Numbered from the stretch's first letter, positions 6,081-17,503 are shown. The stretch: DNA of 32,000 bases from Fastidiosibacter lacustris (GCF_003428155.1 NZ_QLIR01000003.1:30001-62000), one strand, 5' to 3'. Notes: generated from the letters alone by a model not told the origin. Made by a program: numbers and translations.

Positions 6081-7199
6081 ATGAATATGTATAAGGTAAT
6101 CACATCGGTCTCCTTGCTAGGTTTAATACTTAGCGGTTGTGCAATAGTTGACAATAAAGACGTCAATAAAAATAATAGTGAGCTACATAAAAGCGAACAA
6201 ATTTCAAAATGCTTGAATGATTTTGGCAATGACAATTCGAATTGTGTTATTGAAACACAAGCTGATTTGTTGCTACAGGAAGATTATTCTTTCTCTAATC
6301 AGATAAGCACAGAGCAAGCCATTGATACTAAGCTTAATGACCAGTCACAAGAGATTACAAGAGAAACGACTAATATCTCTGTAGTAAATATTGTAAATTA
6401 TACACTTGTAATTTCACCTTTTCTCTCTGATGAGTTGAGTAATACAGTAACAATTATATACGATCAACTTGGTTTAAGTTTATCTTTTATAGATGAAATG
6501 AAACAACGCGGACTCGAGATTTATACTAATCCGAATACATTGAAATTAGGGATTGCTGAAACAAAGGGTATCGCTCAAAAAATTTCAAGTGAAAATATTG
6601 TTTTGTATACATTAAAAAACGAAAGCTTGAGCGCTCTTAGTGATGACTATATTGTCTCTACAAAACTGCCCGTCGACCAAATCGAGAAGTTGGTTTTAGT
6701 TTATAAAGTAGCGAATAAAACAGCTGAATTACCAAGAGAAACAAAAGATGATGCTATAGTAGGTATCGAAAATTATACACTTGCCATTTCACCTTTTGCC
6801 TCTAGGGAGTCAAACAGCATGATAAGGACTGTATATGATCAACGTGGCTTAAGTTTGGCATTTATAAATGAAATGAACCAACATGGCTTTGAAGTTGCTC
6901 GTAATTCCAATACGCTGAAATTAGGGGTAGCTGAAACAAAAGATCTCGCTCAAAAAATTGCAAGTGAATATATTGTTTTGTATACATTAGAAAATGAAAA
7001 AATAAACACTGTGCTGAGGAGATGGAGTGAGCAAACCAAGGTTAAGCTTAAATTAGTTGATATCCCTGAAAAATTCTTGAATCAAACTGTTCATGAAAAT
7101 GAAGTATATGGTAGTGGCATTGTGGATGTAAACGTTTTGAATTCAATTGGTCTTTTATTTAATAAAGTTTTTAGCATACGGGAGTATCAAGGTGATTAA
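6081..7199 (+). CDS. pilL: PilL-position lipoprotein of the type IVb pilus operon; contains an internal 76-aa tandem duplication
   Basis: Signal peptide with lipobox LSGC. First gene of the operon, with a size (372 aa) and position matching R64 PilL. The C-terminal stretch TVLRRWSEQTKVKLKLVD resembles the TcpQ-type motif. The symbol is assigned by synteny only. Confidence 0.5.
   Translation: MNMYKVITSVSLLGLILSGCAIVDNKDVNKNNSELHKSEQISKCLNDFGNDNSNCVIETQADLLLQEDYSFSNQISTEQAIDTKLNDQSQEITRETTNISVVNIVNYTLVISPFLSDELSNTVTIIYDQLGLSLSFIDEMKQRGLEIYTNPNTLKLGIAETKGIAQKISSENIVLYTLKNESLSALSDDYIVSTKLPVDQIEKLVLVYKVANKTAELPRETKDDAIVGIENYTLAISPFASRESNSMIRTVYDQRGLSLAFINEMNQHGFEVARNSNTLKLGVAETKDLAQKIASEYIVLYTLENEKINTVLRRWSEQTKVKLKLVDIPEKFLNQTVHENEVYGSGIVDVNVLNSIGLLFNKVFSIREYQGD
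6396..6998 (+). repeat. Two 228-nt in-frame copies (6396-6623 and 6771-6998, period 375 nt) inside the pilL-like gene
   Basis: NYTLVISPF...NTLKLGIAETKGIAQKISSENIVLYTLKNE versus NYTLAISPF...NTLKLGVAETKDLAQKIASEYIVLYTLENE. By hand alignment, 49 of 76 residues are identical. Confidence 0.9.
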
Positions 7200-7695
7200 A
7201 CATATTAGTGTTTCTATGCTTTTATTAGCATCTTTAAAAATAAGTTTTGCGCAGGGCGAATTGACTGTTCAATTTTCGCCTTCTTTAAGTGAGGAGATAA
7301 AGCGTAAAAATGTGCACGATGTCACTCAGGTTTATACGATAGTGAATCCTGAGCAAAACTTAATAGTATATGGTAAGGATGAACAAATTCAAAAATTAGC
7401 AACAAAAGAAGCAGAGCTTTACGTCTTACATAAAGGTGAAACTTTGCGCCAGGCTTTGAATCGTTGGGCAGAAATGAATGGTTACACAGTTGTATATCAA
7501 ACAGATATTGATTTCACAATTAGCCAAACAACCGAGATCTATGCCAACTTTTTAGAAAAAGGTGGTGCTTTAGAGCAAGTGCTTGAGTCTTTAAGTAAAT
7601 CATCACATCCTCTACAAGTAGAGGTAATGTCAAACAAAGTGTTGGTTGTGAAGTCATCACATTATTCCCCTAGCTTATTAATACCACACGCGTAG
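7192..7695 (+). CDS. pilM: PilM-position periplasmic protein with a TcpQ-like domain
   Basis: GTG at 7192 lies 8 nt after ggag and overlaps the upstream stop. Signal peptide VIKHISVSMLLLASLKISFA-QG. The motif TLRQALNRWAEMNGYTVVYQTDIDFTI is typical of TcpQ/PilL-type secretin-associated proteins. The start could instead be 7147 or 7216. Confidence 0.5.
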   Translation: MIKHISVSMLLLASLKISFAQGELTVQFSPSLSEEIKRKNVHDVTQVYTIVNPEQNLIVYGKDEQIQKLATKEAELYVLHKGETLRQALNRWAEMNGYTVVYQTDIDFTISQTTEIYANFLEKGGALEQVLESLSKSSHPLQVEVMSNKVLVVKSSHYSPSLLIPHA

Positions 7696-16023: not shown

Positions 16024-17503
16024 CTTGTTAAGCCAGCAAGGCTTTTCAATCTTTTCACTTCTTATTACTGTTTTGATTATGGGCATTCTTTTGTCTGGCT
16101 ATTACTGGAAAGTGCAAGATGATCAAAAGGGCATCGAAGCGAATACGTTAGGAAACCAGATTGCTGATTATGTGTCTGCCGTGATAGCCCGTGTTTCTCA
16201 AGATAGAAATCTTGATACCAATATCATATATTCAGGGTTTGGCTGGCTTAAGGCAGCTACATGCAATAGCGATGGCAGCGGTAACCCGCATGGTGGCTAT
16301 TTGCCGTGTGGTTATAAGATCAACTCGCGTTTATTAGGTGATCAAAGCGAATTAGATTTTACAGTGACTCTGACTGATTTTGTTGATCACTTGAATAATA
16401 ATCCAACGGCGCGCAGGCAAATTATGATTAGTATTCCTCAGATATATGAAACTAATCGTATAGATCTTTCAGCGCATTTGGGTGCGGTAGTGTTTAATAC
16501 GGCAAAGGCACGCTATGGACTTGGCACCCATATGACGAATATTAATGACACACATCTCCCAGGTCCAAGCATTCGTTCTGCGGCAAATGTAGCCACTCAT
16601 CATGGTATTGCAGATTTTAAATATAATAAAGAGACTGCAAAAATCGTCGTTGAAGCACTTGTTACCAATACTGATGGTATTTGGTTACAGATTGATGGTT
16701 CTAATTCTATGGTGGCAGATATCAGTTATAACAAACCCAATCCTCTAATAGAACATACTTTTAGTAAAAGAGGTATTGTTAATGTGGCAAGGGTAGAAAA
16801 TTTTAATGAAGTTGATAAAAAAATACAGGAATCATTAGATAAATTTGGACCCTATTTTTCAGGTTATACCGGGGATAAAACTAAAACATCGCTTGAAAAC
16901 TCGATGCGAATCAATGCCTCTAATAATATCTATTTAGGCAATCAGCATCGTGGTTTAAATCAAAAAAAGACGAATATTCACGTTTATGATCTCAACCTAG
17001 GCAGTATGGGAGGAGAGAATCTTCATGCACTTTTTAAAGGAACAACACCGGTTTGTAGAGAAATGCCTACTTTTCCGATTACTTTACCAGTATTGCTGCC
17101 AACAGGACCAAATGGTAAGGTGTTTGTGGTTTTTTCAGGTACGATTCGGCATTTATCTACGGCTTTTAGTGCATCTGCGACGTTATCGATGGTAGAAAAT
17201 ACAAGTATAAAGCCTGTCAATACTTATTCATCACCAGCAGTATTAAGTCCAGTACCACCAGTGCCTGGATTAGAGCTATTTCCAAATACAATCACTGTTT
17301 TTCATATGATGACATTGGATAAGCTAACCAAACCATTCGAGGCTTTAGAACTATTGATTGATAACAACTTAATTAATAATAGCAATTTAGTAGCTGACTA
17401 TTTTAAGAATATAAATGTTGCCTTATGGCTTCCTGTAATGTTTCCAATGCTAAATATGATCCCTGTCCCTGGAAGTTTTAGATATTGTTACACATCCCAT
17501 TAA
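15971..17503 (+). CDS. pilV: PilV-like large minor pilin / putative tip adhesin, copy 2, with an unrelated C-terminal domain
   Basis: ...LLSQQG-FSIFSLLITVLIMGIL followed by long colinear similarity to copy 1 (YYWKVQDD, LGNQIA.Y.SAVI, NNNPTARR, VVFNTA.ARYG, VTNTDGIWLQIDG.NSMVADISYNKP, SMRINAS). The start is uncertain: TTG 15971 or GTG 15974 after gggggaag (overlaps copy 1 by about 50 nt), or TTG 16025 just after the copy 1 stop. Confidence 0.58.
   Translation: MVDLKRLEIFITVRYRTSLLSQQGFSIFSLLITVLIMGILLSGYYWKVQDDQKGIEANTLGNQIADYVSAVIARVSQDRNLDTNIIYSGFGWLKAATCNSDGSGNPHGGYLPCGYKINSRLLGDQSELDFTVTLTDFVDHLNNNPTARRQIMISIPQIYETNRIDLSAHLGAVVFNTAKARYGLGTHMTNINDTHLPGPSIRSAANVATHHGIADFKYNKETAKIVVEALVTNTDGIWLQIDGSNSMVADISYNKPNPLIEHTFSKRGIVNVARVENFNEVDKKIQESLDKFGPYFSGYTGDKTKTSLENSMRINASNNIYLGNQHRGLNQKKTNIHVYDLNLGSMGGENLHALFKGTTPVCREMPTFPITLPVLLPTGPNGKVFVVFSGTIRHLSTAFSASATLSMVENTSIKPVNTYSSPAVLSPVPPVPGLELFPNTITVFHMMTLDKLTKPFEALELLIDNNLINNSNLVADYFKNINVALWLPVMFPMLNMIPVPGSFRYCYTSH

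Follow-up and report, generated by a model that had tools for sequence, protein, structure and literature searches.

A 32,000-nucleotide window of the Fastidiosibacter lacustris genome (GCF_003428155.1, NZ_QLIR01000003.1:30001-62000; one strand, 5' to 3', positions counted from its first letter) carries at 6081-17503 ten genes that very probably form a complete operon for a type IVb pilus, one belonging to the conjugative R64/PAPI-1 (PilL-PilV) lineage, in an orphan chromosomal context. Our fuller interpretation, toward which we lean only slightly, is that the operon was left in, or captured by, the chromosome without a conjugation module, was remodeled, and now probably serves attachment. The machinery is of a known kind, in a remodeled and chromosomally orphaned form; it is neither an ordinary pilus of an integrative and conjugative element (ICE) nor a new machine. 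In RefSeq, its products are mostly annotated as "hypothetical protein".

Gene content and family assignment

The genes of the operon, with one internal repeat, are the following (lengths in amino acids, aa):

6081-7199, + strand: pilL (g1), PilL-like outer-membrane lipoprotein, 372 aa, lipobox LSGC/A (BLASTP to orthologs)
6358-6999, + strand: tandem duplication inside pilL, period 375 bp, 76% nucleotide identity
7192-7695, + strand: g2, in the "pilM" position, periplasmic TcpQ-domain protein, probable secretin partner (PF10671)
7708-9330, + strand: pilN, lipoprotein secretin, lipobox AAGC/A (PF00263, TIGR02520)
9332-10687, + strand: pilO, PilO-like bitopic accessory protein, 451 aa (BLASTP to orthologs)
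10680-11153, + strand: pilP, 157 aa, signal peptide (TIGR03021)
11150-12817, + strand: pilQ, assembly ATPase, 555 aa (PF00437)
12780-13949, + strand: pilR, inner-membrane platform, alternative start at 12807 (PF00482, T2SSF)
13981-14553, + strand: pilS, major type IVb prepilin (PF08805, N_methyl, Bundlin)
14560-16023, + strand: pilV1, large minor pilin, 487 aa, putative tip adhesin (28-33% identity to the one PilV in each relative)
15971-17503, + strand: pilV2, tandem paralog, 510 aa from TTG 15971 (alignment to PilV1)

An open reading frame (ORF) scan agreed with an earlier note on this window, made by a model from the DNA alone, which had described ten co-oriented genes with overlapping or abutting ends. 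All ten ORFs are intact across 11.4 kb of DNA with 35% GC. The pilL stop at 7199 overlaps the GTG start of g2 at 7192 (167 aa), for which TTG 7147 and ATG 7216 are further options; the pilN stop at 9330 is followed by the pilO ATG at 9332; the pilO stop at 10687 overlaps the pilP start at 10680; the ATGA at 11150-11153 holds both the pilQ start and the pilP stop; and the pilQ stop at 12817 lies beyond either start of pilR (12780 or 12807). PilQ and PilR are adjacent and in the class order for type IVb R64/ICE pili, and only 6 nt separate the end of pilS from the start of pilV1. The TTG of pilV2 at 15971 has a Shine-Dalgarno-like GGGGGAAG a few nucleotides 5' of it, and the start must lie upstream of 16040 for the protein to have a prepilin-like N-terminus.

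Profile hidden Markov models (HMMs) from Pfam and NCBIfam directly supported the earlier assignment to the PilL-PilV families for six of the ten products. The remaining four (g1, PilO, PilV1 and PilV2) had no direct family match and were assigned via complete synteny and BLASTP similarity to proteins of plasmid- or ICE-borne operons (E 1e-13 to 1e-39). By far the best secretin family for PilN was TIGR02520 (PilN, type IVB), at 198 bits and E 2e-58, which is under the 287.65 cutoff of that model; its lipobox residues G25-C26 are invariant among orthologs. PilQ matched T2SSE (PF00437) at 153.6 bits, PilP matched TIGR03021 (pilP_fam) at 39.4 bits, above the 34.65 cutoff, and PilS matched PF08805 at 27.9 bits (cutoff 22). 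Against R64 reference proteins taken from NC_005014, PilN, PilQ and PilR showed significant BLASTP similarity at 23-27% identity (PilN 27%, E 8e-28; PilQ 25%, E 6e-37; PilR E 2e-16), and hhalign gave probabilities of 88% for PilP and 94% for PilS. PilO is 24-27% identical to its orthologs (E 1e-23 to 1e-33). It does not itself match PF06864 (PAP_PilO), but three of its nine orthologs do (best E 3.5e-6), which ties this fourth gene to R64 PilO; the direct hhalign comparison with R64 PilO was weak (E 0.021), over a conserved GW..L..Y.R motif. Together with gene-for-gene synteny with nine related operons, these family matches uphold the proposal of the earlier note that this is an R64/ICE-lineage type IVb pilus operon.

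Other assignments were considered and rejected. For the families of type II secretion (T2SS), type IVa and Tad systems, which the earlier note had named as the outcome that would overturn its proposal, the models scored far under their cutoffs and under the type IVB scores: GspD 43.8 bits, GspE 134 (cutoff 630), PilB 120.7 (cutoff 675.65) and TadA-family 23. MSHA and type III secretion models likewise scored far below the type IVB models. An assignment to the type IVb pili of the TCP/BFP/CFA-III kind was dismissed too: the operon has an R64-type secretin, PilP and PilS, and TcpB/CofB-like and TcpJ-like genes were not found. The features shared with those pili are the TcpQ domain and a sub-threshold Bundlin match on the pilin (19.2 bits, cutoff 22.3).

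The first two genes depart from the R64 scheme. In the PilL-like protein, a domain of ~125 aa occurs twice in tandem, together with a TcpQ-like stretch at the C-terminus, and its similarity to the PilL proteins of three related loci (L002, L005 and L006; E 1e-13 to 1e-20) is restricted to the C-terminal domain. HMM scans gave no match to TIGR03748 (conj_PilL) and no significant TcpQ match in g1, whereas TIGR03748 matches residues 71-172 of the L002 ortholog. The conj_PilL region has apparently been lost from the F. lacustris PilL, and a second copy of the ~125-aa C-terminal domain is present instead. The product of g2 matches TcpQ (PF10671) at 58.8 bits, is 36-39% identical to its orthologs and aligns with the C-terminal TcpQ domain of R64 PilL. 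In R64 that domain forms the PilL C-terminus, and PilM is a PF07419 protein; none of the ten operon products matched PF07419, and tblastn with R64 PilM was negative. For L and M, the gene mapping of the earlier note is imprecise: the gene it called pilM is the TcpQ-domain gene. A 400-aa protein encoded at 20456-21658 of L003, in the MPF_I transfer module of Fangia, is weakly similar (24%, E 1e-6) to the repeated PilL C-terminal domain.

Chromosomal surroundings and related loci

The locus lies on a 148.5-kb contig, and the ClpB, TrxB and aspartate carbamoyltransferase encoded in the window, as well as several of the pil products, are exact F. lacustris RefSeq proteins. We read the left flank for a further 8.4 kb beyond the window from a 99.8%-identical contig of 'Candidatus Nebulobacter yamunensis' (GCA_024208055.1, JAMBMW01), an obligate endosymbiont of the ciliate Euplotes aediculatus that shares 99.38% average nucleotide identity (ANI) with the cultivable F. 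lacustris (PMC9837558). From the far end of this extension to 14.5 kb right of the operon, over roughly 40 kb of sequence, the pilus locus is uncoupled from conjugation. Neither the window nor the 8.4 kb to its left contains an integrase, a relaxase, a type IV secretion system (T4SS), PilT, PilU or Rci, and tblastn with R64 Tra, PilT, PilU and Rci and with proteins of the mating-pair formation (MPF) classes MPF_G and MPF_I gave no match at the locus. These scans confirm the earlier observation that no recombinase, relaxase or T4SS gene is present, and the transfer module with pilT, pilU or rci that might have lain just outside is absent from the 8.4 kb to the left in the sister contig. Peptidase_A24 and SLT domains had no match in the scanned ORFs of at least 80 aa (five antisense overlapping ORFs were left out), and pilI, pilJ and pilK are absent from the operon. 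Signs of an insertion were likewise sought: no direct repeats of at least 14 bp bracket the interval from valS to dacA, ARAGORN found no tRNA and Rfam no RNA family in the window, and there is no compositional island signal, the GC content at third codon positions (GC3) being equal to that of housekeeping genes.

The closest relatives of the operon are embedded in a different context. Searching with PilQ returned 13 proteins at E <= 1e-20, which came, besides the sister genome, from Cysteiniphilum halobium, C. marinum (three paralogs), Fangia hongkongensis and metagenomes, at 40-52% identity. We compared nine related loci (L002, L003, L005, L006, L013-L016 and L018), the first of them on a 67.6-kb contig of C. 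halobium SYW-6. Gene order is the same in all nine: first an unknown gene of ~425 aa, then PilL, the TcpQ-domain protein, secretin, PilO, PilP, ATPase, platform, PilS and one PilV. The proteins of these plasmid- or ICE-borne modules are true orthologs of the F. lacustris ones (identity: PilQ 41-52%, PilN 40-48%, PilS 29-39%, PilV 28-33%). We found no description of the Cysteiniphilum and Fangia modules in the literature searched. A genome-contig search with the PilN alignment (N-terminal patterns) returned two loci, both already known.

In eight of the nine, conjugation genes directly follow pilV. Four loci (L002, L005, L006 and L015) continue with an MPF_G ICE set (DUF2859, DUF3487, DUF2895, DUF3438, TIGR03759), and four (L003, L014, L016 and L018) with an MPF_I set (DotI/IcmL, DotH/IcmK, TrbI). 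The ninth, L013, reaches its contig end about 3 kb past pilV, too soon to tell; the sizes of its downstream genes resemble those of L015. Against this background, the earlier claim that the F. lacustris operon stands apart from any conjugation module is well founded. The occurrence of the pil module on two conjugation backbones suggests that, in the Fastidiosibacteraceae, it has moved as a cassette between transfer systems of the MPF_G ICE type and the MPF_I Dot/Icm-like type. In a neighbor-joining tree of PilN, PilQ and PilR, the F. lacustris operon forms a long deep branch inside the clade, whose deep nodes are unresolved, and the three MPF_I-linked modules included (L003, L014 and L016) form one clade with 100% bootstrap.

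The comparison also revises one claim. The earlier note had taken the missing pilT and pilU as a sign of stripping, but neither gene lies between pilS and pilV in any of the nine relatives, none of them encodes a peptidase within 10 kb, and the ten-gene pil cluster of PAPI-1 has no pilU and no rci (PMC5297154). Since pilT and pilU are absent from the conjugation-linked relatives too, their absence is a clade trait and not a result of domestication. What distinguishes the F. lacustris operon from all relatives are four differences: it has no T4SS, it lacks the ~425-aa upstream gene (absent from the locus by tblastn), its PilL is without the conj_PilL region, and it has two pilV genes. The PilL proteins of the relatives are about 400-430 aa in the MPF_G-linked loci and shorter or not separately called in the MPF_I-linked ones; they are full-length where aligned, and the conj_PilL domain is present in the one tested (L002). 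Conjugation linkage in both the related operons and the outgroups makes the orphan state unusual, and its simplest reading is that it is derived.

Among described systems, the PAPI-1/PFGI-1-class ICE pilus of Pseudomonas (pilL2-N2-O2-P2-Q2-R2-S2-T2-V2-M2) shares the PilL-type lipoprotein, lipoprotein secretin, PilO, PilP, ATPase, platform, PilS and large PilV and, like the F. lacustris operon, PAPI-1 is without its own prepilin peptidase, rci or shufflon (PMC5297154). The MPF_G ICE gene families and the TIGR03748 domain of PilL2 also occur with the closest relatives of our operon. It differs in that F. lacustris has no ICE, no pilT2-like transglycosylase, no PF07419 PilM and no TIGR03748 in PilL, and in having two pilV genes and a separate TcpQ-domain gene where the PAPI-1 class has one PilV. 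The R64/ColIb-P9 (IncI1) thin pilus has the same order from secretin to pilS, similar PilN, PilQ, PilR, PilP and PilS, a TcpQ domain (at the PilL C-terminus) and, as in F. lacustris, a variable PilV C-terminus. Its pilI/J/K, PF07419 PilM, PilT, PilU, Rci and sfx repeats have no counterpart here, and R64 pil is linked to an MPF_I transfer region whereas this operon is not. Compared with the enterobacterial and Pseudomonas systems, even the ATPase reaches only about 25% identity.

The pil loci of Salmonella Typhi SPI-7 and Yersinia pseudotuberculosis YAPI are chromosome-resident R64-type IVb pili implicated in host-cell adhesion and self-association. They keep pilT, pilU and, in SPI-7, rci, which the F. 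lacustris operon lacks, and they sit inside large tRNA-integrated ICE-like islands with integrase and transfer genes, none of which is detectable around the F. lacustris operon.

The immediate neighbors and the putative promoter are as follows:

2211-5357, + strand: StcE/TagA-like M66 zinc-metalloprotease lipoprotein gene, directly 5' of the operon (PF10462, PF12561)
5927-5954, + strand: sigma-70-like promoter match, the best in the gap 5' of pilL (ATGACA-16-TATGAT, extended TG; a consensus match only)
17653-18789, + strand: PBP5-type DD-carboxypeptidase gene (dacA), right boundary, 150 bp past pilV2

The earlier description of housekeeping genes on the right and lipoprotein genes on the left was accurate. 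From 17.6 to 32 kb, the right flank is of housekeeping type: the DD-carboxypeptidase, a LuxR-type regulator, clpB, a nucleosidase, an amino-acid permease and trxB, followed by an EamA transporter, an ATP-grasp enzyme, a nucleoside phosphorylase, coaE and the aspartate carbamoyltransferase gene pyrB. PADLOC found no matches among the flank genes. The R64 pil operon includes the peptidoglycan-active PilT. Between pilV2 and dacA we found no terminator-like site in the 150 bp, so read-through into the DD-carboxypeptidase gene is possible. The LuxR/GerE-type regulator is divergent (18926-19651); an unrelated type IVb cluster on an E. coli plasmid (L007) also ends with a LuxR-type gene.

On the left, the window holds two NHL-repeat lipoprotein ORFs and the 1048-aa M66/TagA lipoprotein gene, and the sister contig continues to the toxin-antitoxin pair and valS. 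The M66 protein has an intact HELGHDYGLGH motif and matches StcE (PDB 3UJZ) at E 2.5e-86. Its gene and the pil operon are separated by an AT-rich gap of 724 bp (5357-6081) and are probably separate transcription units. The arrangement recalls the layout of a mucinase next to a T2SS or type IVb pilus, as in stcE-etp and tagA-TCP. Between F. lacustris and the endosymbiont, the M66 gene differs by 11 single-nucleotide polymorphisms (SNPs), of which 6 are synonymous and 5 nonsynonymous, and by a 6-bp indel at 4908. The two NHL ORFs (3-1562 and 1552-2184) are in adjacent frames, split by a run of nine G at 1515-1523; eight G would give one ~740-aa protein, and the endosymbiont has seven, which is out of frame too. 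The run is either a phase-variable homopolymer or part of a pseudogene common to both genomes. Further left, the sister contig carries an ABC transporter, a binding protein, a glpF fragment, valS, two unknown genes and an Xre-RES toxin-antitoxin pair. The last four (L009 4901-8033; 318 and 202 aa, Xre-like antitoxin, RES-domain toxin) lie between valS and the NHL/M66/pil block and may be the left margin of an insertion that happened long ago; neither an integrase nor an att-like repeat was found there.

Pilins and the duplicated pilV

PilS has the hallmarks of a type IVb prepilin: its leader of 19 aa ends in G, the mature protein begins with ITMVE and so has Glu5, and a C-terminal pair of Cys residues is conserved. 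The PilV N-termini also resemble prepilins (G/F and then a hydrophobic helix); that of PilV1 reads ...QQSG/FVIVP and is without Glu5.

The two PilV proteins are ~57% identical across their first ~345 aa and essentially unrelated over the last ~150 aa. Both have a 20-aa insertion and a ~38-aa deletion in the alignment with the PilV of every relative, and these shared changes indicate that the duplication arose in this lineage. Synonymous divergence (dS) between the copies is about 2, which is saturated, and the ratio of nonsynonymous to synonymous divergence (dN/dS) is 0.17 for the 345 aa that the copies share, against 0.57 for their C-terminal part. Since synonymous sites are saturated, the duplication is old, and the dN/dS pattern is in line with two proteins that have long been maintained and that differ in their binding domains. 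The R64 shufflon varies PilV by DNA inversion, whereas F. lacustris has two fixed tandem genes, which would be the fixed counterpart of that variation. We found no sfx-like near-perfect inverted repeats in the 14.5-17.6 kb interval.

Word-indexed searches recovered two proteins with PilV1 and three with the PilV alignment. An exhaustive PilV profile search of 1.84 billion proteins returned 218 cluster representatives (E <= 1e-3), so the PilV N-terminal module is part of a sparse but wider family. Distant members carry the TIGR02532 prepilin methylation motif, and several have R64-PilV-like C-termini; R64 PilV itself was not detected by BLASTP or by PilV profile comparison. The PilV-like loci from metagenomes (L019-L051) are too divergent to bear on the orphan question. 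Ten of these loci (L020, L021, L023, L024, L028, L035, L037, L039, L040 and L042) are distant PilV-family genes on large soil or rhizosphere contigs. Several genes in this set carry R64-PilV-like C-terminal segments, and tblastn found no T2SSE ATPase or secretin within 10 kb of them. PilV-like proteins may occur away from pilus machinery.

Maintenance, alternatives and a possible role

Taken together, the ten intact and translationally coupled ORFs, the dN/dS of pilV, the host-like codon composition and the deep branch in the tree support an operon that is maintained and not freshly decaying. The loss of the ~425-aa gene and of the conj_PilL domain is remodeling consistent with uncoupling from transfer.

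A number of observations pull the other way. PilL, PilO and PilV have no direct significant similarity to R64 proteins by BLASTP or profile comparison, and hhalign and HMM comparisons of PilL, g2, PilO and PilV with R64 proteins were negative or marginal. The AlphaFold2 model of PilV1, built from three sequences, was unusable (pLDDT 34, pTM 0.26). It is possible that pilV was duplicated before the operon moved to the chromosome. T4SS genes of types T, I and F occur elsewhere in the F. lacustris genome (PMC9837558), so that use of the pilus in trans is possible. The sister genome adds further points. The repeat TTCGC at 11732-11741 occurs twice in F. lacustris pilQ and three times in the endosymbiont, where the extra 5 bp shift the frame and split the ATPase into 221 and 336 aa; the endosymbiont pilL is shorter, with one hybrid copy of the repeat; and over ~7000-17500 (about 10.5 kb) the two genomes differ by three SNPs, all nonsynonymous. 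Because pilQ is frameshifted in an obligate endosymbiont, the pilus system is dispensable at least inside the host.

The published comparison of the two genomes agrees with this frameshift: its Table S2 enters the endosymbiont gene as the pseudogene pair "909, tcpT_2" and gives tcpT_2 of F. lacustris as intact; its TXSScan screen of secretion systems does not mention this pilus (PMC9837558). The frameshift fits a role in free-living life or host encounter, and ongoing decay equally. The flanks (1441-6350 and 17503-22817) diverge by 0.2-0.27%, and the lower divergence of the operon could reflect recent recombination or chance.

If decay is the right reading, the operon would be an inert remnant of a decayed plasmid or ICE insertion whose disabling mutations have merely not yet accumulated in this strain. 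The frameshifted pilQ and shortened pilL of the sister genome speak for it, as do the more than 100 predicted pseudogenes in each of the two genomes (PMC9837558), the missing ~425-aa partner gene and conj_PilL domain, and the nearby Xre-RES pair and unknown genes. We consider it unlikely nonetheless: stops arise easily at 35% GC, yet ten ORFs have stayed open over 11.4 kb and have kept their translational-coupling overlaps; the pilV copies are saturated at synonymous sites, yet show a dN/dS of 0.17; codon composition is like that of the host; and the operon forms a deep branch with no close mobile relative.

A more ambitious version of the attachment reading would have the orphan pilus, its two PilV tip adhesins and the StcE-like mucinase form an exapted host-interaction organelle for ciliate attachment or entry in a bacterium nearing symbiosis, possibly with export of the mucinase from a genome with no reported T2SS, dispensable once inside the host. 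Such a pilus, no longer needed once the bacterium is locked in its host, would explain the pilQ frameshift of 'Ca. Nebulobacter yamunensis'. We regard this version as quite unlikely.

The pilus might also act in trans, stabilizing mating pairs for a conjugative T4SS elsewhere in the genome, as one half of a split element. Eight of the nine related operons are visibly conjugation-linked, and the PilV proteins of R64 and PAPI-1 bind recipient lipopolysaccharide (PMC5297154). However, every relative with a long enough contig has its T4SS immediately next to the operon, whereas in F. lacustris unrelated genes fill no less than 8 kb to the left and 14 kb to the right; F. lacustris is without virD4 and virB5 (PMC9837558); F-type systems build their own pili; and the conj_PilL domain and the conserved upstream gene have been lost. 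These points make a mating function in trans very unlikely.

Lastly, the StcE homolog directly 5' of the operon raises the idea of a T2SS-like device that exports this M66 lipoprotein, and perhaps the NHL lipoproteins, with or without long fibers. On pO157, StcE is exported by the adjacent etp T2SS, tagA lies within the Vibrio cholerae TCP island, and type IVb pili of the TCP and CFA/III types secrete TcpF and CofJ. Moreover, Table S1 of the genome comparison has no T2SS row for these genomes (PMC9837558), and the type IV pilus machinery of Francisella secretes proteins (bioRxiv 10.64898/2026.05.11.724269). We hold this explanation to be highly improbable, as an M66 gene is near none of the nine related operons, the 724-bp gap before pilL has its own promoter-like site, R64-type pili are not known to secrete proteins, and the genome is also listed with a type IVa system.

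We return to the reading of a remodeled operon kept for attachment. Under it, and by analogy with related pili, the lipoprotein secretin PilN would form the outer-membrane channel, aided by the TcpQ-type accessories g1 and g2, and PilO and PilP would join this channel to the inner-membrane platform PilR. The ATPase PilQ would polymerize PilS, and PilV1 or PilV2 would prime or cap the fiber, with the divergent C-terminal domain setting binding specificity. The operon has no second (retraction) ATPase, and the fiber would be non-retractile. Prepilins would be cut by a housekeeping peptidase encoded elsewhere, much as host PilD reportedly processes PAPI-1 PilS2, a result attributed to Carter et al. 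(2010). The absence of a peptidase gene within 10 kb in any relative, and from PAPI-1 (PMC5297154), points to such processing in trans. We infer that the operon is expressed and that the cells are piliated. With no adjacent T4SS, an adhesive or aggregative role is the likeliest: instead of finding mates, the pilus would, for instance, attach the cell to surfaces, to neighboring cells or to its ciliate host. The suggestion of the earlier note, a domesticated adhesion or secretion organelle, may apply, though the frameshifted pilQ of the conspecific endosymbiont and the T4SS genes elsewhere in the genome call for caution.

Type IVb pili of the R64/PAPI-1 kind are textbook accessories of conjugation, and the F. 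lacustris operon seems to offer a clean example from nature of one that was uncoupled from transfer and kept by the chromosome. F. lacustris straddles free-living and endosymbiotic life; we place a moderate value on the locus, since its functional side is one that we infer. The changes that accompany the uncoupling, namely the loss of the T4SS, of the ~425-aa gene and of conj_PilL and the duplication of the tip adhesin, point to which parts belong to transfer and which to assembly. The cultivable strain with an intact operon and the near-identical endosymbiont with a frameshifted pilQ together constitute a natural experiment on what the pilus is for.

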